DNA from: a virus | Direction: 5' to 3' (one strand) | IMG/VR virus record: IMGVR_UViG_3300027969_000043 | Span: 104,872 to 168,871 of that record | DNA length: 64,000 bases | Shown: piece by piece, positions 8,919 to 63,679 of the stretch | Numbering within the stretch: the stretch's first letter is position 1 | Layout of the letters: every line of letters starts with the position of its first letter | Notes under the pieces: generated by a model | Told to the model about the DNA's origin: nothing | The model's input: the letters and a program-made list of their open reading frames with translations, nothing else | The model's database searches: none | Made by a program: the position numbers and the translations under genes

Positions 8919-9884
8919 ATGGGTGCCGAAAATAAATATATTACCAACCTACCAACCGTACTATCCGAAGTAAGCAAAGTCAGAACGGTTCAACTAGGTA
9001 TTGTTGCAAGTGTTGAAGACCCAAATGGGTTAGGTAGAATAAAAATTAGAATTCCAGGCCAACCAAACGTTGGCGGTGACGCTGATTCAACAATTGACGA
9101 ATTACCGTGGGCAACCCCAATGGAATCAAAATTTTTTACCAGCCAACCAAAAGTTGGTGAAGGTGTTTTTGTATTAACATTTAGTAATCAAAAAGCCCAT
9201 TCTGATAGATTATATTTTGGGCCGATAATATCACAGCTAGACAAATTAAATTTTGATTCATTAAATGTAACTGGTTTAAATTCTTTTACATTTGGTACAA
9301 CAACCCCAAATGTTTCAATGAATAGAATTCCAGCAATAAAGGGTGTTTTCCCAAAACAAGATGATATCTCGGTACAGGGTAGATACAACACTGATATTAT
9401 ACTAAGAAAAAATGAAATATTAATACGCGCTGGTAAATTTGTTGAATCAAAAGCCGATATAAATAATCCATACCCATTTCAATTTAATAATACAACACAA
9501 GGATTTATTCAAATTAAAAATAATGTTAATTTAGTTAGGGATGGTCAAGATTTGGGTAGCGTAACAAATATTGTTGGTAGTAAAATCAATTTAATCACAC
9601 ATAAAGATGGTACCCCTAGATTTAATGTTATGAATCAAGATTCACAAGTTAGTGATGAAGAAATTCTAAACATTCTTGAAAATGCACACCCACTACCATT
9701 TGGCGATTTACTTGTTGAATATTTAAGACTCCTAAAAAATGCGTTTTTAAACCACGTACACAATTACCATGGCATACCACCAACCGATTTAACCGTCGGA
9801 GTAACACTTCCAGTTAAAGAATTTAATGATAAAGCTGAAGACCTAGAAAGTAGAATGTTATCGAAGAATATCCGCATAAATTAA
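8919..9884 (+). CDS. Baseplate hub/spike protein with gp5/VgrG-type OB fold
   Basis: EDPNGLGRIKIRIP...LPWATP...PKVGEGVFV; C-terminal HVH. Confidence 0.8.
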   Translation: MGAENKYITNLPTVLSEVSKVRTVQLGIVASVEDPNGLGRIKIRIPGQPNVGGDADSTIDELPWATPMESKFFTSQPKVGEGVFVLTFSNQKAHSDRLYFGPIISQLDKLNFDSLNVTGLNSFTFGTTTPNVSMNRIPAIKGVFPKQDDISVQGRYNTDIILRKNEILIRAGKFVESKADINNPYPFQFNNTTQGFIQIKNNVNLVRDGQDLGSVTNIVGSKINLITHKDGTPRFNVMNQDSQVSDEEILNILENAHPLPFGDLLVEYLRLLKNAFLNHVHNYHGIPPTDLTVGVTLPVKEFNDKAEDLESRMLSKNIRIN

Positions 9885-9913
9885 TATTACCAGATATTTA
9901 TTAATAAAAAGAA

Positions 9914-11320
9914 ATGGTAATTAGAACATTTTTCGACAAGAATAATACCATAGTTAGAAATGAAGTTGTTAATACAGCTAGAAACCCAGTAACCGAATTA
10001 TTTTACGGTGGGCCTACTGGTGAAAACAAATATAGCCGTTACTTATTTCATTTTGATGAAACTAGATTAGTCAACATGTATGATAATGGTACATTTACTG
10101 ATTTAACTAAACTAAAACACACATTAAAACTAACTAATACAGCGTCATTTGACGAAGGGTTATTAAATGGTTCGTATCAATCAAAAGAAAGAGCGTGCTC
10201 ATTCGACCTAATTGTTTTTAAAGTGGGTCAAGAGTGGGACGAAGGTGTTGGTTATGACTATTTATCCTGTAACCTGCTAACTGGCGATTGTGCTATATCA
10301 ACAAAACCATCAACATGGGTTAATCCACAAACTGGTATAGTTTGGACTGGCGGTTCTGGTGTCTACTCAGGTTCACCAAGTGGGTTAACAATTGCAACAC
10401 AACATTTTGATTTAGGTAATGAAAACCTAGAAGTTGATATTACAGATTACGTTAATGGTGTTATGACAGGAAACACAAATAATGGACTAGGTATAGCATA
10501 CGCTCTCCCGTTTGAAATAACAAGTACACAAAATATGCAATACGTTGGTTTTTTTACCAAATATACACAAACATTTTACGAGCCATACATTGAAACCATA
10601 TATAGCAATTACATAACAGACGATAGAAATAATTTCTTTTTGGATAAACCAAATAAACTTTATCTATACGTTAACGTAGCTGGAAACCCAACAAATTTAG
10701 ATAACCTACCAACAGTATCAATACTTGACGAAAACGGTGTAGCGTATACCTTTATTGAATCATCTGGTGTAACGCACGTAACAAAAGGTGTTTATTCAGT
10801 TGATTTAACAATTCCATCTGGGGATGGTGAAATAGGAACATTATTTAATGATGTTTGGCAGGATTTAGTAATCAACGGGGTTTCTAGACCAGATGTTAAT
10901 CTCTATTTTGAATTAAAAGATAGTTTTGGTTATTATAACCTAGGCGACAGTGATTCGTTACCGAAAAAAGTAGCTGTATCGATATCTGGGGTTAGAAACC
11001 AAGAAAAAATAAAAAGGGGTGACACTAGAAAAGTAATTGTATCAACTAGAATACCATATACCATAGAACAAACACAAAACATATCAAATATAAAATATAG
11101 AATATATGTAACCGAAGGTAAAAATGAACTAACCGTAGTTGATTTTCAACCTGTTGAACTAGCATCTAATTATAATTATTTCTTATTAGACACCCTAAGC
11201 CTAATTCCAAATGTATATTATTTAGATATGTTAGTTGAATCTAATTTAGAGGTAACAACGTTAAAAAATGTTTTAAATTTTACTATTGTTAGCGAATCAA
11301 ACTTAAGACAATCACAATGA
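9914..11320 (+). CDS. Beta-rich virion structural protein
   Basis: SRYLFHFD, WDEGVG, VDITDYV, YEPYIE; late motif at 9894. Confidence 0.6.
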   Translation: MVIRTFFDKNNTIVRNEVVNTARNPVTELFYGGPTGENKYSRYLFHFDETRLVNMYDNGTFTDLTKLKHTLKLTNTASFDEGLLNGSYQSKERACSFDLIVFKVGQEWDEGVGYDYLSCNLLTGDCAISTKPSTWVNPQTGIVWTGGSGVYSGSPSGLTIATQHFDLGNENLEVDITDYVNGVMTGNTNNGLGIAYALPFEITSTQNMQYVGFFTKYTQTFYEPYIETIYSNYITDDRNNFFLDKPNKLYLYVNVAGNPTNLDNLPTVSILDENGVAYTFIESSGVTHVTKGVYSVDLTIPSGDGEIGTLFNDVWQDLVINGVSRPDVNLYFELKDSFGYYNLGDSDSLPKKVAVSISGVRNQEKIKRGDTRKVIVSTRIPYTIEQTQNISNIKYRIYVTEGKNELTVVDFQPVELASNYNYFLLDTLSLIPNVYYLDMLVESNLEVTTLKNVLNFTIVSESNLRQSQ

Positions 11321-11670
11321 TGAAAGAATTTATAAGAGAAAACTTAAGACTTAATACCCTTATTACAGAGAAAATAATTGACGGCCAAAAAATGAATCCG
11401 CAATTACAAACATTATGTAACACAATGAGTGTGAGAAGTTACCATGAAGTTTTGGGTAGACTCATTGCTGCTATTGGACACCCAGAAGAAAACCATGAAT
11501 TATGGGCTAAGATAAAAAAACCCCTAGATATGCTTGAAAAAGCTAGCAAAGATTTAAATAAAGAAAAAAAAGAAAATGGTATGACAGGTGATTCAGAAGT
11601 AGACGAAGCAAATACTTGGTGGTCCGCAATACAATCAACTCTTTGTGAACAAGGTCCAGAATTTCAATAA
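11317..11670 (+). CDS. Hypothetical protein with N-terminal (I/L)xE tag
   Basis: MKEFIRENLRLNTLITE. Confidence 0.6.
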   Translation: MMKEFIRENLRLNTLITEKIIDGQKMNPQLQTLCNTMSVRSYHEVLGRLIAAIGHPEENHELWAKIKKPLDMLEKASKDLNKEKKENGMTGDSEVDEANTWWSAIQSTLCEQGPEFQ

Positions 11671-11709
11671 TTAACTTTACATTTTTTTATTTTTTATTAT
11701 ATTTATTTT

Positions 11710-11779
11710 ATACGTTAACTCACGTATTGGTATCGAGCTATAAGCTTTAGAGTTGTCTAGGCAACAAAGATATTAGTAC
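11710..11779 (+). promoter_or_regulatory. Structured 5' leader (three-way junction)
   Basis: 11-bp stem 11724-34/11769-79 with three G-U pairs enclosing two hairpins; starts just after late motif 11699-11706. Confidence 0.6.
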
Positions 11780-11809
11780 ATAATAACAAAAATTAAAAGT
11801 TAAAAAAAA

Positions 11810-12652
11810 ATGAAAAGAAGAATCTCTATCGGGGAACCGATATCTAATCCTACAGCACAAATCTGTATCAACAAATCCAGACTTAAAGTCTACAACAAAG
11901 AAACCTCACCAACTTATTATTTAGAAAAAGGACAAGAGTTTCAAATCGAATTATTCAATCCAACAAAAAACACACTTTTAGCAAAAATCCAATTAAATGG
12001 AAAAGCTATATCACAAGGTGGTTTGGTGTTAAAGCCTGGCCAACGCGTGTTTTTAGAACGCTATTTAGATGTTGCTAAAAAATTCATGTTTGACACATAC
12101 GAAGTATCAAATACAGAAGAAGTTAAAAAAGCCATCGAAGACAACGGCGATTTTAAAGTTGAATTTTATAAAGAATCTAATCCAACCCTTGTATATGGTA
12201 CGGTAACAACATATAATACAAACAATCGATTTACACTAACTGATAATTTTAATACTACAGCTCCTAATAATTACCTTAATCTTACTGGTAATATTACAAA
12301 TACAACTTCGACGTATAGCTCTGGTATTGTAAATTGTAGTAATAGCTTTACTAATAATGTAACCAATGATAGCTTTGAACCTATACAACAAAAACCAAGA
12401 CTTAGAAAAAGCTTAACCAAAAGCATAGAAACTGGTCGTGTTGAAGCTGGAAGTAGTTCAGACCAAAAATTTGAATATGTAAACAAAAGTTTTGATTACT
12501 ACGCATTTCACACCGTAGAATGTAAACTACTACCAATATCACAAAAAATAAATACGGCAGAAGATATCAACGTAAAAAGATATTGCACAAACTGTGGGAC
12601 AAAACAAAAACCAGAATTTAAATTTTGTCCTAGCTGCGGAGAAAAATGCTAA
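11810..12652 (+). CDS. Hypothetical protein with C-terminal zinc ribbon
   Basis: YCTNCG...FCPSCG; Thr/Asn-rich linker. Confidence 0.75.
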   Translation: MKRRISIGEPISNPTAQICINKSRLKVYNKETSPTYYLEKGQEFQIELFNPTKNTLLAKIQLNGKAISQGGLVLKPGQRVFLERYLDVAKKFMFDTYEVSNTEEVKKAIEDNGDFKVEFYKESNPTLVYGTVTTYNTNNRFTLTDNFNTTAPNNYLNLTGNITNTTSTYSSGIVNCSNSFTNNVTNDSFEPIQQKPRLRKSLTKSIETGRVEAGSSSDQKFEYVNKSFDYYAFHTVECKLLPISQKINTAEDINVKRYCTNCGTKQKPEFKFCPSCGEKC

Positions 12653-12680
12653 AATAATAACTAGAGTTAACGTATTAAAA

Positions 12681-12702
12681 AAGCCCAGATTGTCTGGGCT
12701 TT
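12681..12702. terminator. Bidirectional intrinsic terminator
   Basis: AAGCCCAGA-TTG-TCTGGGCTT with A/T tracts between convergent genes. Confidence 0.8.
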
Positions 12703-13087
12703 ATTTATTTGGATATCTAATCATTGTATTTCTAAACCTGAAATCTTTATACTTACCAGTATTTGAACCAAAACCAAATCGTTTATAGAAGCGTAATAAG
12801 CCTGTTTTAGAGCTTTCTGTGTCTTCTGGGGTTAATACACATAATAAATCATATTTATCACACAGCGCTGTTATTTCCGTCATCAATGCCGTTCCTAACC
12901 CCTGTCTTCTTTGCGCCTTGTCTTTTACCTTGATTGAGGCTACTTCAATTGCATCATTACCTTTCAAATATATCCAACAAGCCATACCCAATGCATCATA
13001 TTTTTGTATGATACCATCTAATTCTGCTTGAATTTTAAATCTTGCATCATCTTCAACAACCTCTTGTAATATTTGTAATATTTTCAT
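12701..13087 (-). CDS. GNAT acetyltransferase with N-terminal LxE tag
   Basis: QRRQGLGTALM acetyl-CoA motif A; RFYKRFGF. Confidence 0.85.
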   Translation of the reverse strand: MKILQILQEVVEDDARFKIQAELDGIIQKYDALGMACWIYLKGNDAIEVASIKVKDKAQRRQGLGTALMTEITALCDKYDLLCVLTPEDTESSKTGLLRFYKRFGFGSNTGKYKDFRFRNTMIRYPNK

Positions 13088-13090
13088 ATA

Positions 13091-13855
13091 TTAATTTCTC
13101 ATATTTTTACCCAGCAAACCTTCTCTATGCATTCTAAGTTTTAATTCTTTACGCCATTTGGCCCTTGTTTCACCTGTAAACTTATTATTAACACTATGCA
13201 ATGATGGCGATAACTCTAACATATCTTGGAATGTCATCTCATCCCACATATCTTTATGTTTATTATACACTTGTTTAACATTATGAATTTGAGCTTGAAT
13301 TTCCATTCTTGTTGCGTCTACAGGTATACCACCTAAACTTGTTGTATTACGCTCCCTTGCTTTATCAACTCTTGCCTCAATATGTTTATTATTTAAAGTA
13401 TCATCAATCCAATGTGCTAATTCATGATGTATACTACCTTTGATTCTTGCCTCGGTAAACTCTTTAATCAAGCTTTTTCTTTGTTTTTCATCGCTTAATT
13501 CGTCCAATGCCTTTTCTATATTGCCTTTAGCATAATTCATAACAAAACTAATAGCGTTTTTAAATGCGCCAATACCAATTATTTTATGTTTTGGGTTATA
13601 GAAATTAAGGCCTGGGTTTATTTTTATAACGCATGGATTTAATTCATGACACTTAATTGAATCAGGTGACATTAAAATCGAAGTATCCGTTTCAGCCTCT
13701 TCAAACATTGAGCTAGTAACAAATCCTGTTCTTTCAATAGCATCAACATCATCCTTAAAATATTTATCATACAACATATCAACATCGCTATCAACTTCTG
13801 TTAATTTTTCTGACAAAAGATTTTCACGTAATAATTTTTTAATAAATGATTTCAT
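13091..13855 (-). CDS. HExxH metallopeptidase-like protein with LxE tag
   Basis: IHHELAHWID...EIQAQ; MKSFIKKLLRENLLSE. Confidence 0.6.
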   Translation of the reverse strand: MKSFIKKLLRENLLSEKLTEVDSDVDMLYDKYFKDDVDAIERTGFVTSSMFEEAETDTSILMSPDSIKCHELNPCVIKINPGLNFYNPKHKIIGIGAFKNAISFVMNYAKGNIEKALDELSDEKQRKSLIKEFTEARIKGSIHHELAHWIDDTLNNKHIEARVDKARERNTTSLGGIPVDATRMEIQAQIHNVKQVYNKHKDMWDEMTFQDMLELSPSLHSVNNKFTGETRAKWRKELKLRMHREGLLGKNMRN

Positions 13856-13856
13856 A

Positions 13857-14447
13857 TTATTTTACCAAAAATTTAGAATAGTCCATAGTCGATGGTTTAT
13901 CATTTTTAAAATAATACTTTTCAACTTTATTACCGTACTTGATTGTTTTATAATAACCATCTGGAATTGTCGCACCTGTACTTAACTTAATTGATGATTT
14001 TGAAAAAACACATTGTATCTCAACATTAACAATTTTATTTTCATTTGCCAATAATCTTTCACGCGCTTCTAATAATCGCCATGTTGTTCTATTTAAATCT
14101 TGATTTTGAAGTGAACAGTTTAAATAACTAAATGTTTTATACAGCATCTCTTTAGTACAATTAAAATCAGCTGCTGGTGCCATATGACCCTTATCATATA
14201 TATTATTCACATAATCCATGTGGTCAGATGTTTTAACACTATCTATGGTATAAAAATCCATACCCTTTCTAGACGCGTCGCCATTAGGACACTTTACAGT
14301 ATATTTAACCCACACAGGTTGTTCCAAAACTTCAGAATATATTACCTCGTAGATATCGGTTTTAATATGAACCTTATCTCTTAATTTTTGTGAAAATATA
14401 CTTAACGGTATAATACCAATTAGTATAATTAATAACATTTTTTTCAT
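13857..14447 (-). CDS. Secreted DNA/RNA non-specific endonuclease (NucA/EndoG type)
   Basis: Signal peptide; YDKGHMAPAADF; LNRTTWRLLE; IPDGYYK. Confidence 0.9.
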   Translation of the reverse strand: MKKMLLIILIGIIPLSIFSQKLRDKVHIKTDIYEVIYSEVLEQPVWVKYTVKCPNGDASRKGMDFYTIDSVKTSDHMDYVNNIYDKGHMAPAADFNCTKEMLYKTFSYLNCSLQNQDLNRTTWRLLEARERLLANENKIVNVEIQCVFSKSSIKLSTGATIPDGYYKTIKYGNKVEKYYFKNDKPSTMDYSKFLVK

Positions 14448-15139
14448 ACTAATAAATATCTTGAACCCTTAGAAAGATTTTCAGTTCCCCATAGAGGTTG
14501 AAGATTACATAAATCCCAACATTCCTTAAACTCTGGGTCATCCAATGATGTAAAATTAAAACTAGACATTGGTCTTATATGGTCAACATGCCATTGACCA
14601 TAATTATCCCATGTCATACCTTCAGTAAATTGTTTTTCCAAATGCTGCATCAACTCTTCAATTGTATAACCAAGTAATGCAAATGTAGAGCGATACTTAG
14701 CGACATTTTTTTCTTTTAAACATGTCCATAGCGCTGTTCGTGTATTTCTACTTAACCTATATCTAGGGTCAATAGCGCATTTATTTTTATTGTATTCTCT
14801 AGAATATGCATTTACGTGCTCTCTATTTTCTTCCCTCCATTTAGTGTGTTGTTTGCGCACATAATTCCTATTTTTTTTAGACCATTTTTTATAAAATTCA
14901 CTTCTTTTTAATCTTGTACCCACTTTAGTCTCATATTTTTTTTGTGCGACGGACCTACCACCAATGTTACGTCTTCCAGATGGACCAATCACAACCCCAT
15001 TTTCTTTTAATGTTCTTATTATAATTGTTTTATGTATACCCATATGTTCACTTATAGTTGTGGAGCCTAATAATTCCTTAGTATACATTCTTATACACTC
15101 ATCTACTTGCTCTTTTGTTAATTCAATTTTTTTACTCAT
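14444..15139 (-). CDS. HNH homing-endonuclease-like protein
   Basis: MTWDNYGQWHVDHIRP...NLQPLW..NLSK; N-terminal HTH-like segment; immediately downstream of capsid gene. Confidence 0.8.
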   Translation of the reverse strand: MSKKIELTKEQVDECIRMYTKELLGSTTISEHMGIHKTIIIRTLKENGVVIGPSGRRNIGGRSVAQKKYETKVGTRLKRSEFYKKWSKKNRNYVRKQHTKWREENREHVNAYSREYNKNKCAIDPRYRLSRNTRTALWTCLKEKNVAKYRSTFALLGYTIEELMQHLEKQFTEGMTWDNYGQWHVDHIRPMSSFNFTSLDDPEFKECWDLCNLQPLWGTENLSKGSRYLLV

Positions 15140-15187
15140 AATTATAAATATACAAACAACCTATATAAAAGTCAAGTTATTAAAACA

Positions 15188-15236: not shown

Positions 15237-17087
15237 TTATCTCAATTCAGCAACATTAAATGTTGGAATACCATCTACTCTTACATGTCCGTAAAATCTA
15301 TTATTGACACTCTTCTTAGCGTAACGAGTCATGATACCTTTAACTGGAGCAAAGTTAAATGGATTGTACATGGTTGGAGTTAATTGCAACGGCACGTATG
15401 GTGCGTAGATGTAACCTGTATCCAACAATGACTTACCTTTATGTCCAATAATTATAGAGTATGATGGAGAATACGGGTCACGATAAACTTGATATCTACC
15501 GCCTAATGTACCGATTCTTTCAATACCCATGTTATATTGGTCTTGCTCAGGATTAGCATCACTTACGTGGAAATATTCTAAATCATCGAATACTGCAGAT
15601 ACTTCTGAAGATACAACGATAAAGTTAGCACCACCACGAAGAGTTGACTTGTGGATTTGAGCAGAAATTTGGTTAACTTTAGTTATTAAAGTTTGGTTCC
15701 AATCTTTCTGTGTGTAAGGACTAGAAGATGAAGAAGCTTTTCTCCAACCGTTATAATCCCAACGTAATTGCCATGCAGCAACTTTACGCAAATCTCTCAA
15801 GATTTCTCTATCGATTTCCGCAGCAACTTGCTCAGATAACATTGCTGTTAATTCAGCTTCAGCATCGATGTTGTGGAATGCACTAACGTCTTGCGCTAAT
15901 TCTGGAGACCAAGTAGCTCTTAATTTTCTTTCTTCTACAGAAACTACAACGTCAGTTAAAGTGAAAGAAACTTCACCCATTTCAGTTTCAAGTTCCAATG
16001 TAGCGTATTCAGCCCAAGCAGCAGTAAGTGCAGAGAATGAAGCTAATGTAGTTGCAGAAGCACCAACATAACCATCAAAAGTAGCCGTACCAGCAGCAGC
16101 AGAACCAGATGCAGTTGTACCAACTGGGTGAGTTAAGTCAAGACCCAAGAAGATATAACCAGTGTTATCAGTTAAATTTGTGTAATTAACGATACCTTGA
16201 CCATATACTTGAGTAATAACACGGAAAGGAATAGCTCTGTTAGCAGCAACAATAACATTACCAGCATTATCTAAAATGTTAGAGCTAGTAACAACTTGTA
16301 AAGAAGCTAAGAAAGATTCTGTATCCATTGGGTTACCATCAGGACCAGTTAATACTTGTTTGTTAGAAGCACCACCTGTAAAACCAGATACAGCAACAAC
16401 TAATTGTCTTAACGAACCATCAGCAGCAACAGGACCTACAACAGCTGTAGAAACCGCAGCAACACGTGTGTATGAACCATCGCCGTTACCAGAGAAAACT
16501 GGAACATTACTCATAGTACGGATAGTCAATGTACCTTTTGAGTTATCAAATAAACCATCATCATAGAATAAATCATAAAGATTTTTTGCTAAGAATGGTG
16601 TAACTACGCAAGTACCAGCAGCTGGTAATACGCAACTAGGAATACCAGAAGATGCAAAGCTAGTATGAGCTGAGAATGTTGTACCGTAAACATCAGAACC
16701 AGGTTGGTTTTGTGTATAGTCATTACCAGCAACACCAGAACCGTCTACACGACTAGAAGTCTGAGGTACGAAATAGAACAATTTACCAATTGGCATGTTC
16801 ATAGCTTGTACAGACACGATGTCATTAGCTAATAATTTAGAGAATACTCTTCTCACGATAGGGAATACAACAGTTTCGAATGAACCTGAAGAGGTTGAAG
16901 TTGTTGATTCAGTTAATAATGAAGAAGCTTGGTTCTCATATAATTGAGCGATGTTTTCTTTTACGTGTCCTTTAAGACCTTCAAGAAAACCTAAGCTTTC
17001 CCATTTTGCTTGGGTTTCTTTACGGATAGCCTTCATGTGGTTTAATCCGATGTTCCCAACTTGTCCAGATGTTAATAAATGTGACAT
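15237..17087 (-). CDS. gp23: Major capsid protein (T4 gp23-like)
   Basis: PIVRRVF, VSVQAM, RKLRATWSPELAQD, DAEAEL, EIDREI, YAPYVPL, GIMTRYA. Confidence 0.97.
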   Translation of the reverse strand: MSHLLTSGQVGNIGLNHMKAIRKETQAKWESLGFLEGLKGHVKENIAQLYENQASSLLTESTTSTSSGSFETVVFPIVRRVFSKLLANDIVSVQAMNMPIGKLFYFVPQTSSRVDGSGVAGNDYTQNQPGSDVYGTTFSAHTSFASSGIPSCVLPAAGTCVVTPFLAKNLYDLFYDDGLFDNSKGTLTIRTMSNVPVFSGNGDGSYTRVAAVSTAVVGPVAADGSLRQLVVAVSGFTGGASNKQVLTGPDGNPMDTESFLASLQVVTSSNILDNAGNVIVAANRAIPFRVITQVYGQGIVNYTNLTDNTGYIFLGLDLTHPVGTTASGSAAAGTATFDGYVGASATTLASFSALTAAWAEYATLELETEMGEVSFTLTDVVVSVEERKLRATWSPELAQDVSAFHNIDAEAELTAMLSEQVAAEIDREILRDLRKVAAWQLRWDYNGWRKASSSSSPYTQKDWNQTLITKVNQISAQIHKSTLRGGANFIVVSSEVSAVFDDLEYFHVSDANPEQDQYNMGIERIGTLGGRYQVYRDPYSPSYSIIIGHKGKSLLDTGYIYAPYVPLQLTPTMYNPFNFAPVKGIMTRYAKKSVNNRFYGHVRVDGIPTFNVAELR

Positions 17088-26578: not shown

Positions 26579-26677
26579 GTGAGGCTTTTTTAATAAATAT
26601 AACTTACCCCCGCATTTTATAAACTATTTTTTAAAAAAAATGTAAAAAAAAACACTCATTTTTGAGTGTCTTAATTT

Positions 26678-43458: not shown

Positions 43459-43565
43459 CTATGATAAATATAGATATCTACCATACGATGTAAAGTATAT
43501 AAAATACAATAGCTATTGGGTCTCTCAACCCAATAGCCTTTAATATTTTTAAAACTTAATTTAGA

Positions 43566-56560: not shown

Positions 56561-56675
56561 ACCCTATAAATATCACGAAAAATTTCCCAGAAAAAAATTT
56601 TTAAAAAAGGACCCCCTCTTATATTTTAAGTCGAAAATTTCCCAGAAAAAAATTTTTTAAAAAGGGGTACCCCTC

Positions 56676-57380
56676 TTATTTTATCTTTTTACCATCAACA
56701 AATAATTTATTCAACATATCATCACTTATAAGATTAAGCTTAATATTACTACCCAAAATCTTTTGTACAGGAAAATTTCTTAATAACACATTGCTTGATA
56801 ACCAAAAACCACCAGAACCATTAAAAGCATTGGAAATAACCCTTTTTTTATCTTTATACGTGTTCTTATTTATAACAAGTATATAATTTGACCCCCCATC
56901 CTCAAACGTAAAAAATACCAATTCTTTACCCTTGACATGCGAAGATATATCAGGATAATCATCTAACTCTTCACTTACCGTAATATTAAAACCTAATCCC
57001 ATCCCGTTAATCCTATTCATCTCTTTTAAAAATGGTTCGTCATGCTCATGCTCAATACCCTGTTGAGATAAATAAACATGTATCATCTCATGCGCTAACG
57101 TATTCTTAAATTGACTATATGTTAAATCGTAAAACCTAGACATCCTTAAACCACGTATAATTTCTTTACCCGATTCATCTTTCGCATAATATACTGTACC
57201 AATAAGATTTTTATCCATACCCCACCTTATTGGTATTGGCGCTATCTCACCCCCAAATAACAACCCATTTAATCTATTAAATTCTGACGTTAAATTAATA
57301 TCATTAAAATCAATAACATCTTTATCATTAATCGTTTCTAATATCATACGCCTAAATAACTCCTGTATTAACTTTCTCAT
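56676..57380 (-). CDS. SprT-like metalloprotease (paralogue of domain in 39771..41213)
   Basis: FNRLNGLLFGG...LAHEMIHV...HDEPFLKEMNRIN; start MRKLIQELFRRMILE follows late motif 57387-94. Confidence 0.8.
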   Translation of the reverse strand: MRKLIQELFRRMILETINDKDVIDFNDINLTSEFNRLNGLLFGGEIAPIPIRWGMDKNLIGTVYYAKDESGKEIIRGLRMSRFYDLTYSQFKNTLAHEMIHVYLSQQGIEHEHDEPFLKEMNRINGMGLGFNITVSEELDDYPDISSHVKGKELVFFTFEDGGSNYILVINKNTYKDKKRVISNAFNGSGGFWLSSNVLLRNFPVQKILGSNIKLNLISDDMLNKLFVDGKKIK

Positions 57381-57496
57381 ATAAAGATAAATATCACGAA
57401 AAATTCCCAGAAAAAAATTTTTTAAAAAGGGGGTACCCCTATATGACCTTAAAAAAATTCCCAGAAAATTTTTGCGTGAAGGGTCACCCCCTATGT

Positions 57497-57586
57497 GGGG
57501 TGGCATACGGGGGGGTATGTAAGGGGGGTAACGGGGGGAGGGGGTACGGGGGGAGGGGTACCCCTTATATATGGGGGAGGGGTACG
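57497..57586 (+). repeat. G-run tract (nine runs of G4-G7; three GGGGGAGGGGTAC-type units)
   Basis: Directly visible in an otherwise AT-rich sequence. Confidence 0.9.
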
Positions 57587-58198: not shown

Positions 58199-58261
58199 TT
58201 TTTGTTGGTTTAATTGTGAAAAGATGATGTAATTTAGTAAAATAAATTCAATATACCAAAT

Positions 58262-58489
58262 TTATTTTTTATCATTGTAAATTATAAAAATTGTTGATGT
58301 AATAAATAAAACTAATGAAGTAACCCAACCCCAACACAAAAACCAACCTACGTGCCCTTTATCCATTGCGTGCGCGTATTCGTACATACTGCTTTCACTT
58401 GTCCCAGGTTCAGCACCCAAAATAAATAACGTACATAAACCTAAAACGATAAGGGAAATTTCTTGAGCATAGAAAATAAAATTTTTCAT
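58262..58489 (-). CDS. Small two-TM membrane protein (paralogue of 60271..60507)
   Basis: LGAEPGTSESSMYEY loop between hydrophobic helices. Confidence 0.75.
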   Translation of the reverse strand: MKNFIFYAQEISLIVLGLCTLFILGAEPGTSESSMYEYAHAMDKGHVGWFLCWGWVTSLVLFITSTIFIIYNDKK

Positions 58490-58649
58490 AATTTGAATAG
58501 TTTAATTGTTAAAAGATGATGCAATTTACAAAATAATTTTGATATAGCAAATTTATTTTTGAATTATTTTGATATTTTTTTTATTGATATATGTTGCTAA
58601 AATGTTTAGCAATTTGCTAAATTATTTAGTATGCTAATATTTTTAGCAT

Positions 58650-58701
58650 TATAGGGTGCGTTGGAGTATACTTCCCGATTTGTAGTCGTCTGTGCCTTTG
58701 C
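58650..58701 (-). ncRNA. Candidate small RNA, copy U1
   Basis: Promoter 58706-58737; core CGGGAAGTATACTCCAA at 58661-58677; no ORF. Confidence 0.55.
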
Positions 58702-58823
58702 ATAGCAAAGGTAAGGAAAGCAATTGATATAAACAAATTTATTTTGAATTATTTTTAAATTATTTTAAATAAAAAAAATCAGGATATAGAAATATCCCGA
58801 TTTATCCTTATACAATATAAACC

Positions 58824-58958
58824 CTAATTAAAACGATTGTTGCGTCGTGTCATTTTGTCCCACGACTGATTGCCGTGACAACCATATCCAGCACGACAAG
58901 ATGAACCAAAGATAGCGATTGAACCAAGCAATACCAAAGCAAATAATAATTTTTTCAT
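58824..58958 (-). CDS. 44-aa lipoprotein-like peptide (not in ORF track)
   Basis: MKKLLFALVLLGSIAIFGSSCRAGYGCHGNQSWDKMTRRNNRFN; own promoter and terminator. Confidence 0.7.
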   Translation of the reverse strand: MKKLLFALVLLGSIAIFGSSCRAGYGCHGNQSWDKMTRRNNRFN

Positions 58959-59076
58959 TTTTAAAAGTTTAATTGTTAATTGATAATGCAAATATAGGAC
59001 AATAAATTCAAACTACCAAATTTATTTTTAAAAAGATTTATTTGTTTATTTGAAATTAATTTTGTATTATTGCTGA

Positions 59077-59259
59077 ATGAAAAAATTATTATTACTTATT
59101 GCGATTGCTACCTTATCGGGTTGCTATGAATATCGTAAATTGCCCAATGTTAAACGTGTTAATAAGGGTGATGTAAGAAAAGCAATGAAACATAGCACTT
59201 CAAATTATGAAATGCCAAGACAAAGCACTTATAACGTTTCTTATCATTATAACCATTAA
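59077..59259 (+). CDS. Small lipoprotein
   Basis: MKKLLLLIAIATLSGC lipobox. Confidence 0.7.
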   Translation: MKKLLLLIAIATLSGCYEYRKLPNVKRVNKGDVRKAMKHSTSNYEMPRQSTYNVSYHYNH

Positions 59260-59270
59260 ACCAAACTAAA

Positions 59271-59459
59271 ATGAAAATCAAAACAAAATTAAGCCCAGAA
59301 AATGAAATGCTATCTTTGTATTTATCAATTATTGTTAGCCTTATATTTTTCGCCTTGTGGGTGTTTACAGACATCAACCCAACAAAGTTATTTTTTAACT
59401 ACATCGTGTTTTATTGTGTTGTTGTGCTGATTGGTTTCTTTTATCCTTTCAAAAAATAA
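59271..59459 (+). CDS. Small two-TM membrane protein
   Basis: Two hydrophobic segments. Confidence 0.6.
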   Translation: MKIKTKLSPENEMLSLYLSIIVSLIFFALWVFTDINPTKLFFNYIVFYCVVVLIGFFYPFKK

Positions 59460-59517
59460 TTTAAAAAAAGATTAAAAAAGATTTGGTAGAATGAATAATT
59501 CTACCTATCTTTGATTT

Positions 59518-59579
59518 ATCAAAGCGATAAGACGACGACAAGTCGGTAGGTATACTCCACGCTACGTGCTATTTTTTTT
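59518..59579 (+). ncRNA. Candidate small RNA, copy U2
   Basis: Promoter 59482-59513; CGGTAGGTATACTCCACGCTACGTG then T8. Confidence 0.6.
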
Positions 59580-59635
59580 ATCCAATATATAAAAAAATTG
59601 TCAGATATTACTCTGACAATCATATTATAGTTTAT

Positions 59636-60043
59636 TTAACTATAATAAATTTCCTCCAAATCCTTCAAAACAGCTTTGCCCTTATCCGTCCAAGATATAC
59701 CTTTGAGCCATACAAAATGCTCAAGGTTTTGAGGGTTGCGCCAATCCATTCCTTCGCCCTCAAATAGCCATTTTAAAGCCGTTTTATAGTCAGATGCGCC
59801 CAATTGGATAGTACGTCCAATTAACAAATCAAAAGCCTTCAAATCGGCTTGTAAACGCAATTCCTCCTCGATGGCATTCTCACGGCAAACCTCGGAAAAA
59901 CGAGCGAAATCGGCTTGTAACTGCTCGTCAGACATAGCCGAATAATCCAAGCCACGAGGGCGAAAGCCGTATGCGTCCTTGTGAAAATCGCTATAAACTT
60001 GTAGCATTTCGTTTCTCTCGGCAAGTGATAAGGTAGTAGTCAT
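59636..60043 (-). CDS. Early hypothetical protein
   Basis: YSDFHKDAYGFRPR motif; own promoter. Confidence 0.75.
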   Translation of the reverse strand: MTTTLSLAERNEMLQVYSDFHKDAYGFRPRGLDYSAMSDEQLQADFARFSEVCRENAIEEELRLQADLKAFDLLIGRTIQLGASDYKTALKWLFEGEGMDWRNPQNLEHFVWLKGISWTDKGKAVLKDLEEIYYS

Positions 60044-60152
60044 AATTTGAATGTTTAAATGTTAAAAGATAATGCAATTTAGCAAAATAAATTCAAAGCA
60101 CCAAATTTATTTTCATATAATTTTTTTTATAATATATTGGTTTATATCGCAT

Positions 60153-60216
60153 AAAAAAAATATCGTGTAGGTTGGAGTATACTTCCCGATAGTGTATATC
60201 GTATTGCAACTTTGCT
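60153..60216 (-). ncRNA. Candidate small RNA, copy U3
   Basis: Promoter 60221-60252; CGATA-TACAC-TATCG hairpin; core 60172-60188; T8. Confidence 0.6.
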
Positions 60217-60270
60217 AAAGCAAAGATAAGGTAGTTTTTTCAAACTACCAAATCTTTTGCAAAGTATTTT

Positions 60271-60507
60271 TTATATTTTTTTGTATATACGGATTGCAGT
60301 AGTAACTACAAACGTAACAAATGATAAACCTAATGCCAAAAGCAAATACCAACCAAAATTACCTTTATCGCAAAAATGCTCGTATTCATACATAGAACTC
60401 TCACTTGTCCCAGGCTCAGCGCCTAATACACATAATAGGCAAAAAGCAAAAATACACATTGAAAAAAATTGTGCGTTTTCAATAAATTCATTAAAAAACT
60501 TTTTCAT
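60271..60507 (-). CDS. Small two-TM membrane protein (paralogue of 58262..58489)
   Basis: LGAEPGTSESSMYEY; ATG 60507 follows promoter and shared leader. Confidence 0.75.
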   Translation of the reverse strand: MKKFFNEFIENAQFFSMCIFAFCLLCVLGAEPGTSESSMYEYEHFCDKGNFGWYLLLALGLSFVTFVVTTAIRIYKKI

Positions 60508-60645
60508 AATAGATTGTTTAAATGTTAAAAGATAGTGCAATTTACTAAAATAAATTCAAACTACCAAATTTATTTTTAAAAAAATAAATAAAAAATAATT
60601 GCCAAAATATTTGTTTTATAATTTAAAAACCCTTACCTTTGCTAA

Positions 60646-60706
60646 AGCAAAGGCAAAGACGTTTAAACAACGGGAAGTATACTCCACGCTACGTGTTATT
60701 TTTTTT
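60646..60706 (+). ncRNA. Candidate small RNA, copy U4
   Basis: Promoter 60610-60641; core 60671-60686; CACG-CTA-CGTG; T8. Confidence 0.6.
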
Positions 60707-60874
60707 ATATATGAAAAAAAAATTTTGCAAAGGTACAACATTATTTCCATACTACCAAATAAAGTTATCCACATAGGCAAAAAATATGTTAATAACTTTT
60801 CTAAAATAAATTTGGTAGGTTAAAAAAATAGTCCTATTTTTACATCAGTTCTTTCACATTTAAACCAATCTATT

Positions 60875-61183
60875 ATGACACAATTTGAAACGGCTATTGC
60901 CCAAGCCGAAATTGGCGAATTGCAAACTCCAAGTGTTAGTTATGGTAAAACTGCCATAGATTACTTTTGGTATCAAGTTTCAGTACATCACTTTAACCTT
61001 AAAATTATGGCAAGTGGTATGAAATGTCGGGGTATTAAATTTACCGATATTAAAAAATACTACGGCTTGAAAGGTAATTGCGCTAAAAAATGTCTGGCAC
61101 AATTTGAAAATGTCGTTACTCGTTACCGATTAAAAATGATTAACGACCATCTCAACACAATGGAAACTGAATACTCGTTTTAA
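60875..61183 (+). CDS. Early hypothetical protein
   Basis: Own promoter/leader; terminator GCACCC-TTCG-GGGTGT+T tract at ~61200-61223. Confidence 0.7.
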   Translation: MTQFETAIAQAEIGELQTPSVSYGKTAIDYFWYQVSVHHFNLKIMASGMKCRGIKFTDIKKYYGLKGNCAKKCLAQFENVVTRYRLKMINDHLNTMETEYSF

Positions 61184-61315
61184 ACTCCAATCCAACAAAG
61201 CACCCTTCGGGGTGTTTTTTTTTGCCCCATGTACACAAAAGTGTGCATTTAAAATAATTTAAAAATAATTCAAAATAAATTTGGTAGTATCAAATTAATG
61301 TACTACATTTGTATT

Positions 61316-61379
61316 GTCAATGTGAATGACAGACGATTAAAACTCGGGAGGTATACTCCAAGCTACGTCATATTTTTTT
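61316..61379 (+). ncRNA. Candidate small RNA, copy U5
   Basis: Promoter 61280-61311; CGGGAGGTATACTCCAAGCTACGT then T7. Confidence 0.6.
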
Positions 61380-61673
61380 AGCGCTCCAAAAATCTTTTCA
61401 TTCTTTCATATTCATAATTTTCATAATATAATATTTTTTTAATGAATTTAAATAATGCTTTCATAGTATATGGATTTAATTATATATATTCAAATAATAT
61501 ACCAAACCAAAATTATTTTTCATATCCTATTTGTCAGCTCAAAACTGACAATGCAGATATAAAACATAACTCATTTTAAGCCGATTTAACGGCATATATT
61601 TATCAGATAAGGTAATCATAAGGGGCATAAAAAAAGGGGCTAAATTAGCCCCTTATTCATTCGTATAGCAATT

Positions 61674-62540
61674 TTAATTTGCCGTTGCCATATCGTATAT
61701 GGTATCAAATATTTTGCCGTCTAGTGTTTTTTGCACATCAAACGATTTCGCAAATTTGGTATGCAATATCTCGTTGAAGGCATTGTAACCTAACCACATA
61801 TTAGGCGAAGTATTAAGGTATCTAGATTCAGCCAATATCGTATCTGCAACTATTTCAGCATTTAAGGACGGCTCGGGATTTTTGTCCGATTTTTCATACT
61901 TAAATATAGCAGTTTCCTTGCATACGTCCTTTACGAATTTTTGCACATCAGAAACGATTGCACCACTCAAAAACTCTGCCTTCGGTTTCAACGTGTAATA
62001 CTCGTTATTCAAAAAATTGCTAACAAGGGTTTCAATTTCGGGCAATACAAACTCAACGATACTACCTTTATGCTTTACGTTAAAAGACATTTTGGTTTCA
62101 GCAACGTGCAAACCATTAGTACAAACTTGGCGAAAATATCCAAAACTGCCCGACGTTTTACAACTGCCGTCATACGAATTAACGAAACGTAACATTGGCT
62201 TGATAATATCTTTGCCATTAGCCACAACGATATTATATCTATCATCGTTTAAGATATAATCAACTGCGAAACTACGATTATCACGATTAATACTACGTGT
62301 GTCGTATTGCACATCAGCATTAATCAAATTTTCTTCCACAACGGCAAAAAACTGCTCGTTGGGTAAATGTCCGTAATTGTCCGAAAATACGCCTACCAAC
62401 GTGCCGTTGGAATAGATTGCTTTTTCTAATCCCTTACGTGTAGGAGTGCCTAAAATTTCGGCTAAATTACGCACTTCGCTATCAACGAATACGTTGTCAT
62501 TCTGCATTGTTTGCCCCTTAAAATTGATACGTGTAGTCAT
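61674..62540 (-). CDS. DUF932/DUF945-family protein
   Basis: FVNSYDGS...GYFRQVCTNG...KHKG; W..YNAFNE. Confidence 0.8.
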   Translation of the reverse strand: MTTRINFKGQTMQNDNVFVDSEVRNLAEILGTPTRKGLEKAIYSNGTLVGVFSDNYGHLPNEQFFAVVEENLINADVQYDTRSINRDNRSFAVDYILNDDRYNIVVANGKDIIKPMLRFVNSYDGSCKTSGSFGYFRQVCTNGLHVAETKMSFNVKHKGSIVEFVLPEIETLVSNFLNNEYYTLKPKAEFLSGAIVSDVQKFVKDVCKETAIFKYEKSDKNPEPSLNAEIVADTILAESRYLNTSPNMWLGYNAFNEILHTKFAKSFDVQKTLDGKIFDTIYDMATAN

Positions 62541-62695
62541 AACTGGGTTGCATTTTAGCCACTCGCATTGTGGTTAGGTTGAATTGTGAGATACAAATAT
62601 CGCATTAGTTTTTCAAACCACCAAATTTATTTTGAATTATTTTTAAAATAGTTATACACATATTATTTTTTATAATGTGAATAACTTTGCACCCT

Positions 62696-62764
62696 AAAAA
62701 AAATAGCGTGTAGGTTGGAGTATACTTCCCGCCATTGTTAGTGCCGTATGTCATTCAAATTGAC
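62696..62764 (-). ncRNA. Candidate small RNA, copy U6
   Basis: Promoter 62769-62800; core 62715-62731; T8. Confidence 0.6.
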
Positions 62765-62854
62765 AATACAAATATAGGATAATAAATTGAAACTACCAAA
62801 TTTATTTTAAAAAAAAATGCCCTACATTTGTAAGGCATTTAATTCGTGTGCTGA

Positions 62855-63013
62855 TTAACACTGATAAGTTATCGGTATTATCTCAAACGCTTCAATAAAA
62901 CCAGTTTCTGCTTGTAACACTTCAACAAGTGCAAGAGCATCAACTCTGTGTTCAAATGCTTTGTGCATAATACCCGCACCATTTTCAAATACGAGCCAAA
63001 TTGTTTTTTCCAT
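62855..63013 (-). CDS. 52-aa early protein (not in ORF track)
   Basis: MEKTIWLVFENGAGIMHKAFEHR...; own promoter and leader. Confidence 0.65.
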   Translation of the reverse strand: MEKTIWLVFENGAGIMHKAFEHRVDALALVEVLQAETGFIEAFEIIPITYQC

Positions 63014-63258
63014 AATAGATTGTTTTAATTGTGAGATACAAATATAGGATTAATAATTCAAACTACCAAATATTTTTTGAAGTATTTTTAAAATATTTTT
63101 TTGGTGGTCTGGAATTAATGTTGTATGTTTGCTTTGTTTAAATGAATAGGTTAAAAGATAATCCCTGATGTGTCTACATCGGGGATACTTTTTATTTTGT
63201 ATAAACTAAAAAACCCCACACTTTTGGTGTAGGGAATTTATTCACAATTAAACTAACT

Positions 63259-63489
63259 TTAACTTCGTAGATATGCAATATCTTTGTTATACTTTAATGT
63301 CTTGGCTTGGCTTGTGGTCAGTCCAACAAACTCTTGTGGTCTAAAACTAATTTCATCGGGATAGAATTCAAATAAAAATTCTTCAACCCCATTTTCAAGC
63401 GTAACATAAACCTTTGGCATATCATCAAAGAAACTCTTTGGCATTGCCGTAATTCTTGCTGATACGATTTTTAATTCTTCTGCTAACAT
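63259..63489 (-). CDS. Early hypothetical protein
   Basis: ATG 63489 after promoter; FYPDEISF...EFVGLT. Confidence 0.7.
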   Translation of the reverse strand: MLAEELKIVSARITAMPKSFFDDMPKVYVTLENGVEEFLFEFYPDEISFRPQEFVGLTTSQAKTLKYNKDIAYLRS

Positions 63490-63679
63490 AATTTTATTTT
63501 TTGATTGTGAATGAATAAGCAAATTTAAGATTAATTTTCCACACTACCAAATATTTTGCAAAGTTTTTTCAACCCATGTACACAAAAGTGTATATCGTGG
63601 AATTGATTGAGAGTCGCCCCATGCTCTCATGTATTGCCGTTCTTTGTTGCGTGGACTTTCGGCACATTAAACAATTCCA

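Follow-up and report, generated by a model that had tools for sequence, protein, structure and literature searches.

The stretch of viral DNA analyzed here, referred to as the window, comprises 64,000 nucleotides (nt) and corresponds to positions 104,872 to 168,871 of IMG/VR record IMGVR_UViG_3300027969_000043; it carries a gene for a 280-amino-acid (aa) zinc-ribbon protein whose mRNA ends are complementary to each other. Our analysis makes it highly probable that this message contains a cis-acting module in which the first 12 nt pair with a segment of the 3' untranslated region (UTR) located against the terminator, so that the message is looped, beside a leader that folds into a three-way junction (3WJ). 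Sequence comparison across hundreds of genomes shows that the 5'-3' helix has been preserved by compensatory changes, with many unrelated arms, and such conservation places the complementarity, on the same comparative evidence, far beyond chance. The 3WJ of the leader is a real conserved structure, and it is RNA beyond reasonable doubt. What the module does is a more tentative matter. We give slightly less than an even chance to the idea that it acts as a sensor and protector of transcript completeness, which would couple translation and stability of the message to its being complete; the long-range helix would then have to form, and to exert this function, in vivo.

The complementarity in the window, reported earlier in a sequence-only reading of this DNA, is present as described: the 5' arm ATACGTTAACTC (11710-11721) is over its 12 nt the exact reverse complement of the 3' arm GAGTTAACGTAT (12664-12675), which lies between stop codon and terminator. 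The inverted repeat grows to 19 nt at 89% identity, with two mismatches (11703-11721/12664-12682). The 3' arm starts 11 nt past the stop codon (12650-12652) and ends 4 nt ahead of a terminator-like hairpin. Taken by itself, an isolated 12-mer match of this kind is no proof, since such repeats are common in an AT-rich genome: over the whole 168.9-kb genome (32.5% GC), exact 12-mer inverted repeats spaced 100-3000 nt apart numbered 332, compared to 149 ± 18 expected from Markov-1 simulations. When both arms were required to be non-coding and to contain at least 3 G/C, the only survivors were the 11710/12664 repeat, a pair of palindromic terminators (56.7/57.6 kb), and a region rich in repeats at 58-63 kb.

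The evidence that carries the long-range helix was obtained from homologous loci, in which both the leader structure and the 5'/3' complementarity are conserved. (i) For the first 38 unique loci, the duplexes of cognate 5' and 3' arms had a mean energy of -14.4 kcal/mol, versus -8.6 kcal/mol for non-cognate combinations, and none of 20,000 permutations was as good. (ii) With unbiased ungapped scoring, 68 of the 83 unique loci retain a helix of at least 9 base pairs (bp). (iii) The arms of 44 unique pairs share the palindromic core GUUAAC. In this class, one flanking position is C-G in 29, A-U in 8, and U-A in 6 cases, and the next is A-U in 19, G-C in 15, and U-A in 3; the flanks are 85% paired, versus 60 ± 2.4% with shuffled partners (0 of 5,000 shuffles as good). 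(iv) Other clades use different arms, namely, AACGUGAUUAAACUA with UAGUUUAAUCACGUU, UAUAACGUAAUUAAU with its own complement, and ACCUUGUG with CACAAGGU. Among GC-richer relatives, locus L260 pairs GCCUUUUCCCGUU with AACGGGAAAAGG plus a second segment. Locus L262 has a helix of approximately 27 bp, and L266 pairs AUAGAGCCUUGC with GCGAGGCUCUAU. The helix thus reaches 21-27 bp in distant relatives (L260 and L262), compared to 10-15 bp in most loci of the main clade and 12 bp in the window. Because the clades use unrelated arms, what is conserved is the mutual complementarity itself, and a shared protein-binding motif cannot explain it.

Loci with insertions show how the arms behave when the gene is altered. 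In L005, a gene for a GIY-YIG homing endonuclease has replaced the 3' end of the zinc-ribbon gene, and a remnant of the old C-terminal coding sequence persists together with a matching 3' arm about 950 nt downstream. Similarly, a matching arm is retained 0.9-1.2 kb past the stop codon, beyond uncharacterized inserts, in L082, L066, L211, and L226. In L037, a GIY-YIG gene lies behind a full leader, the zinc-ribbon gene retains a second, partial 3WJ, and the arms bracket both genes; L200 and L185 show the same pattern of duplicated leaders. Since the insertions displaced arms that still match, the arms follow the ends of the transcription unit and not the open reading frame (ORF).

Regarding the inserts themselves, GIY-YIG (Seg-like) homing endonuclease genes were confirmed at L005:3889-4800 (minus strand) and L037:398-1048 (plus strand). 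The former duplicates or replaces the end of the zinc-ribbon coding sequence, and the latter captures a complete leader with its start site. Inserts of 0.9-1.2 kb or duplicated leaders are also found in L082/L222, L066/L207, L211, L226, L200, and L185. To judge from these sequences, the recurrent insertion at both ends of the gene looks like a homing hot spot.

The 3WJ is the minimum-free-energy (MFE) fold of the window leader, with a weak z-score of only -1.7. It is composed of stems P1 (11724-11734/11769-11779), P2 (11735-11739/11743-11747), and P3 (11752-11756/11761-11765), with UAGA and AAA as joiners. The sequence-only reading had drawn this junction from the window, and an alignment of 35 non-identical leaders (A1) bears it out: RNAalifold returned the same 23 pairs; standard pairs occupy 95.5% of the alignment cells, versus 34-50% when the 3' partners were slid by 1-3 columns; 13 of the 23 pairs change on both sides, versus at most 6 in the slid controls; and the covariation score was reached by 0 of 500 shuffles. 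Several G.U pairs, located in P1 and at the P1/P2 junction, are invariant across the alignment. Because these pairs fit the plus strand alone, the 3WJ is plus-strand RNA.

A covariance model of the leader (R1) was then used for locus searches. It found a single copy, with 113.7 bits, in the phage's own 169-kb record, and a match directly upstream of the zinc-ribbon gene in 78 of 79 further viral loci. The same position was matched in 10 of 10 loci from metagenome-assembled genome (MAG) bins (E values of 1e-10 to 0.09; protein identity of 38-43%), and the model also places the leader before the gene in the huge phages LR756504, LR756500, and LR756508. In Lak phages the match is marginal (E = 0.18), and a 3WJ-like leader is visible. 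An independent scan of viral contigs with a degenerate DNA pattern returned 80 loci, of which 12 were confirmed by R1; all 12 precede homologues of the gene, and the remaining ones resemble chance matches. Four very distant leaders were uninformative when folded separately, and the model nevertheless hits the correct spot in them. The comparison with Rfam 15 gave no match to the leader, either in positions 9000-15000 of the window (E values up to 10) or in five diverse loci (E values up to 1), and at the 3' hairpin there were sub-threshold matches of the terminator type only. On the strength of these searches, the 3WJ leader is a new structured RNA family that is strictly tied to one gene. In one locus (L023:1395-1509), an extra hairpin of 30 nt (CUCAAAAAC...GUUUUUGAA) is found between the 5' arm and P1, both of which are retained; the linker between long-range helix and junction hence tolerates insertions.

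The strict linkage to one gene would fit a 3WJ that is itself the main device and senses either a small molecule or a protein, such as the zinc-ribbon product of the gene itself in an autoregulatory circuit, with the long-range helix serving to stabilize or present it. Such a role would be compatible with the other readings discussed below. Covarying stems are combined with conservation of the P1 sequence, of the invariant G.U pairs, and of joiners that are rich in purines; such a pattern is typical of binding sites. However, the loops are variable, nothing points to a ligand pocket, the protein combines a generic immunoglobulin (Ig)-like fold and a zinc ribbon and belongs to no recognizable RNA-binding family, and there is no expression platform besides the arms. 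We therefore consider it quite improbable that sensing by the junction is the primary function.

Complementary arms could also act as DNA, either as sites at which an invertible or mobile cassette recombines or as paired operators for a DNA-binding protein. Inverted repeats that are obliged to match would covary too, and the numbers of G.U and A.C combinations in the helix (5 versus 4) do not separate RNA from DNA. Other properties of the loci speak for RNA. (i) Gene orientation and synteny are constant in all long loci, fixed over about 150 loci in which no inverted form was seen, and the leader is always on the promoter side. (ii) Both arms always lie inside the transcription unit. (iii) The arm sequences are unrelated between clades, and helix length, bulges, and spacing vary freely. 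(iv) The helix sits 2 nt from the 3WJ, which is unambiguously plus-strand RNA. For these reasons we favor the RNA level with considerable confidence and regard an action of the arms at the DNA level as extremely unlikely; the mobile-cassette and inversion readings were rejected on the fixed synteny and orientation.

The folding of the predicted transcript (11710-12712; 1003 nt) yielded an MFE structure that includes the long-range helix, with pair probabilities of 0.95-1.0, except for the terminal A-U pair (0.68). The complete 3WJ forms alongside this helix, and both ends of the RNA are paired. Hence, the expectation in the sequence-only reading that end-to-end pairing would release the junction is not supported by the folding and was rejected. 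The same reading had proposed a local hairpin, ATACGT/ACGTAT, as a competitor of both helix and junction. This hairpin is indeed predicted, at -3.4 kcal/mol. Its probability is high, about 0.85, only for transcripts 26-51 nt in length and is at most 0.03 once the 3' strand of P1 exists; the 5' arm is then largely single stranded until the 3' arm appears. In these predictions it is P1, and not the 3' arm, that ousts the hairpin, which is present only while about the first 50 nt exist. Across homologues, the hairpin positions are 78% paired (slid controls, 22-57%), and pairing is maintained solely through G.U pairs and changes on one side; there is no compensatory change, because the 3' side of the hairpin is part of P1 and invariant. 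A function as a conserved switch arm was therefore not established for an element that is predicted only in very short nascent RNA.

A stem that brackets the message might alternatively be a substrate of RNase III, which would cut the flanks, as in rRNA operons, and release a defined monocistronic mRNA from transcripts that begin at the own promoter as well as from those that read through from the late operon upstream. The upstream gene ends at 11670, no terminator separates it from the promoter, and the helix adjoins both P1 and the terminator stem, with which it could stack into a longer helix. The duplexes of 21-27 bp in L260 and L262 have the usual length for this enzyme, whereas those of the window and of most main-clade loci are short for it. 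We judge a processing stalk to be unlikely.

The 5' arm has a further potential partner next to the start codon. The tail of the leader contains AAGUUAA (11797-11803). This stretch repeats the core sequence of the 3' arm and is capable of pairing with UUAACU in the 5' arm. AGTTAA is found upstream of 3 of the 152 genes in the phage genome, where about 1.7 are expected by chance, and for this reason it is no general ribosome-site motif of this phage. In the clade with the 5' arm CGUGAUUA, the tail ends with UAAUUAUG, which is complementary via two G.U pairs and covers the start codon, and in clades with a CCUU-containing arm, the tail has AAGG 5-13 nt before the AUG. In 7 sequence-distinct arm classes, the 5' arm pairs better with its own region from -20 to +3 than with shuffles (P values of 0.007-0.13; Fisher combination of about 1e-5), a comparison tempered by the choice of the class representatives after inspection of the data and by shuffles that kept mononucleotide composition only. 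These complementarities lend indirect support to the full-length-transcript sensor that the sequence-only reading had suggested, minus the release of the junction on which that suggestion was built.

The 5' arm would accordingly possess two mutually exclusive partners, a site in the initiation region that is a copy of the 3'-arm core and the far stronger 3' arm. In an incomplete or 3'-trimmed message, the free 5' arm would fold onto the initiation region and the 5' end would be exposed. Once the message is completed, the 3' arm would capture the 5' arm, which would free the start site and bury both ends of the RNA; the 3WJ may serve as a scaffold or as a protein-binding site. In its most specific form, this would be a positive licence for transcript completion, in which the 5' end is an anti-initiation element that is neutralized only when a decoy, which copies the start region and lies immediately ahead of the terminator, has been transcribed and persists, so that only intact messages are translated and protected. 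A protein, possibly the zinc-ribbon product itself, would dock on the 3WJ and thereby provide a second input, and phages from 170 kb up to the huge ones of 640 kb would share the conserved device. We put forward this licence as a possible but tentative account.

Apart from the post hoc choice of arm classes, several observations weigh against the proposed module or its role in translation. (i) The pairing between 5' arm and start region is weak (-3.8 to -6.8 kcal/mol) and shows no consistent covariation within the main clade. (ii) When the 3' arm is added in partition functions computed for 65 loci, the mean accessibility of the start site rises just from 0.62 to 0.66; accessibility went up in 39 loci and down in 15, and the effect is clear in few. 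(iii) About 10% of the loci, including L040, L036, and L257, have no arms, and Lak phages show no clear arms. (iv) The near-equal count of G.U and A.C mismatches gives no sign of strand specificity in the long-range helix. (v) The transcription start, the transcript ends, and the in vivo structure are predictions from sequence and folding models only.

The small modeled effect on the start site is what would be expected if the module merely protected the ends of the message. Helix and 3WJ would bury the 5' terminus, stack on the terminator, and slow down both 5'-end-dependent and 3' exonucleolytic decay, in a manner similar to that of hbs, and the complementarity to the start region would be incidental. 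In agreement with this explanation, the helix begins with the nucleotide predicted to be the first, its end abuts the terminator, both ends of the RNA are paired in the folded transcript, and the A-rich unstructured tail without a Shine-Dalgarno sequence would be sensitive to nucleases. There is also the precedent of hbs, in which a 14-bp interaction between 5' and 3' UTRs modulates RNase Y cleavage (PMC5737220). End protection leaves unexplained, however, why a copy of the 3'-arm core that changes with the arm between clades precedes the AUG, and why a sequence-conserved 3WJ is needed. As a full account, we consider it rather doubtful.

A number of known systems resemble parts of the module. 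In hok mRNA of plasmid R1, an element at the extreme 5' end pairs with a 3' element (tac/fbi), has another possible partner close to the translation start, and possibly forms a transient 5' hairpin (PMC9841398). The 5' arm described here similarly has a 3' partner, which is supported by covariation, a potential partner in the start codon region, and a predicted early hairpin. However, 5'-3' pairing silences the full-length hok mRNA and 3' trimming activates it, whereas the geometry found here predicts the opposite sign. Furthermore, the ORF, a syntenic core gene of 280 aa, is not that of a small toxin, no antisense RNA is known, a search for one not having been made, there is no sequence relationship to hok, and the 3WJ is an addition. 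In hbs of Bacillus subtilis, a pairing of about 14 bp that joins the 5' UTR to the 3' UTR of one mRNA limits the access of RNase Y to the leader (PMC5737220). The UTR-UTR helix of our loci is of similar length, 10-15 bp. In contrast, hbs is a host gene, its pairing partly overlaps the RNase Y site and is not at the extreme 5' end, it lacks a 3WJ, and its 3' element is not copied at the start site.

The 3' UTR of icaR in Staphylococcus aureus pairs with its own 5' UTR, which alters translation and RNase III sensitivity; in this case it is the Shine-Dalgarno region itself with which the 3' UTR pairs, and translation is repressed, whereas the 3' arm studied here resembles the start region and pairs with an element upstream of it. 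The RNase III stalks that flank rRNAs are another example of flanks of a long RNA that pair into a bracketing stem; they comprise at least 20 bp and are cut, whereas here the bracketed RNA is an mRNA and the helix is mostly 10-15 bp long. With the three-way-junction leaders and riboswitches of Rfam, the leader shares covarying stems and conserved junction nucleotides in a 5' UTR, and it differs from them in having no match to a family of Rfam 15 and no known ligand or binding protein. As judged by the absence of any sequence or gene relationship, the module belongs to neither the hok nor the hbs family.

Literature searches on end-to-end mRNA pairing or structured leaders in phages retrieved no description of the module. 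To our knowledge, long-range pairing between UTRs in bacteria and phages is known from a few cases (hok, hbs, and icaR), each established by experiment in a single system. By its covariation record, the helix described here appears to be among the best phylogenetically supported end-to-end mRNA helices that we know of outside RNA viruses. Translation initiation in Bacteroidota does not depend on Shine-Dalgarno sequences and is poorly understood. Should licensing be true, the phage would possess a way to restrict translation to complete transcripts, as well as a compact, portable control element; should stabilization alone be true, the leader would still represent a new RNA family and provide a handle on mRNA decay in these hosts.

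The features of the window locus are compiled in Table 1. The transcript probably runs from about 11710 to the terminator at about 12710. In homologous loci, a -35 element TTGACA and a motif similar to TATATTTA recur at the same place, the first G/C of the 5' arm is located a median of 7 nt past the -10-like hexamer (51 loci), and the 3' arm begins a median of 11 nt past the stop codon and abuts the terminator stem. A freshwater metatranscriptome contained a sole relevant contig, which is derived from a relative; its 1.3 kb comprise an insertion besides the upstream gene and the ORF, and starts, ends, and strand cannot be read from it.

Table 1. Features of the zinc-ribbon gene locus in the window
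Feature	Coordinates	Strand	Remarks
Promoter-like site	11676..11705	+	TTTACA (11676-81), 16-nt spacer, TATATT (11698-703), extended as TATATTTA (11698-705)
5' arm of long-range helix	11710..11721	+	Predicted first bases of the mRNA; also complementary to AGUUAA (11798-803)
Local hairpin ATACGU/ACGUAU, 6 bp	11710..11727	+	Overlaps base of P1; predicted to be transient
3WJ leader RNA	11724..11779	+	P1, P2, and P3; covariation
Leader tail	11780..11809	+	A-rich, no Shine-Dalgarno sequence, highly conserved; includes AAGUUAA (11797-803)
ORF, 280 aa, zinc ribbon	11810..12652	+	Syntenic core gene
3' arm of long-range helix	12664..12675	+	Abuts terminator
Intrinsic-terminator-like hairpin (12680-12702, 10 bp) with T-rich tail	12680..12711	+	Shared with convergent GNAT gene (12701-13087, minus strand)

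The extended motif TATATTTA is present 20 times in the window, often just upstream of start codons; examples besides the zinc-ribbon gene are 15145-15152, 26594-26601, and 43465-43472, all on the minus strand. Several copies have TTGAC(A/T) 16-17 nt upstream, a spacing like that of the Bacteroidota promoter type TTG...TAnnTTTG. The leaders behind these copies are mostly short, and the 100-nt leader of the zinc-ribbon gene is an exception.

The structural model of the 280-aa protein (mean predicted local distance difference test score of 70) contains an Ig-like beta-sandwich formed by residues 15-122 and 205-242, a disordered linker rich in N, T, and S (residues 128-202), and a C-terminal zinc ribbon. 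Pfam recognized the zinc ribbon only. Searches of PHROGs and with Foldseek returned nothing, a sequence profile search of the PDB gave nothing significant, and alignment of the model with VIA-align retrieved merely generic Ig-like or MSP-like sandwiches (Z of about 6.5). The linker (window 12191-12415) is dense in N-x-S/T triplets (NTT, NLT, NIT, NTT, NCS, and others) and differs in length and sequence between homologues; judging by these triplets, the protein may be glycosylated. The window protein begins with MKRRISIGE; the first 8-13 residues are unconserved among homologues, many of which lack the E, and model confidence is low there.

The gene family is large: more than 3,500 protein clusters match it, at least 557 viral contigs carry the gene, and it extends to Prevotella Lak megaphages and to uncultured phages of 460-640 kb. 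In all long loci, the gene comes after a same-strand homologue of the 468-aa gene, and its orientation is convergent to that of the capsid cluster. In the window, a gp23-type major capsid protein is encoded at 15237-17087, and its nearest cultured relative is a Flavobacterium myovirus protein. The hosts are probably of the Bacteroidota type, since (i) the promoter has the form TTGACA-N16/17-TATATTTA, (ii) the leader is rich in A and has no Shine-Dalgarno sequence, (iii) several of the MAG bins that carry the gene are labeled Bacteroidota, and (iv) the hosts of Lak phages are Prevotella. The Lak homologues (L174/L175:577-1395, corresponding to Lak-C1 and Lak-A1, and L176) contain an in-frame TAG, which is codon 10 in Lak-A/C. 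The gene is open only if TAG is read as sense, which is consistent with stop-codon recoding.

Two further regions of the window contain repeated elements. Positions 58200-63600 harbor at least 10 copies, in both orientations, of an intergenic repeat of 55-70 nt with the core AAATTCAAACTACCAAATTTATTTT, and a second repeat, GGAGTATACTTCCCG, is interspersed with small ORFs; tRNA genes were not found. These repeats may form an array of promoter or regulatory modules belonging to an early-gene region. Finally, the palindromic hairpin AAGGGGTACCCCTC occurs twice (56662-56675 and 57553-57566) and flanks an ORF on the minus strand (56676-57506); the pair probably represents bidirectional terminators on both sides of one gene.

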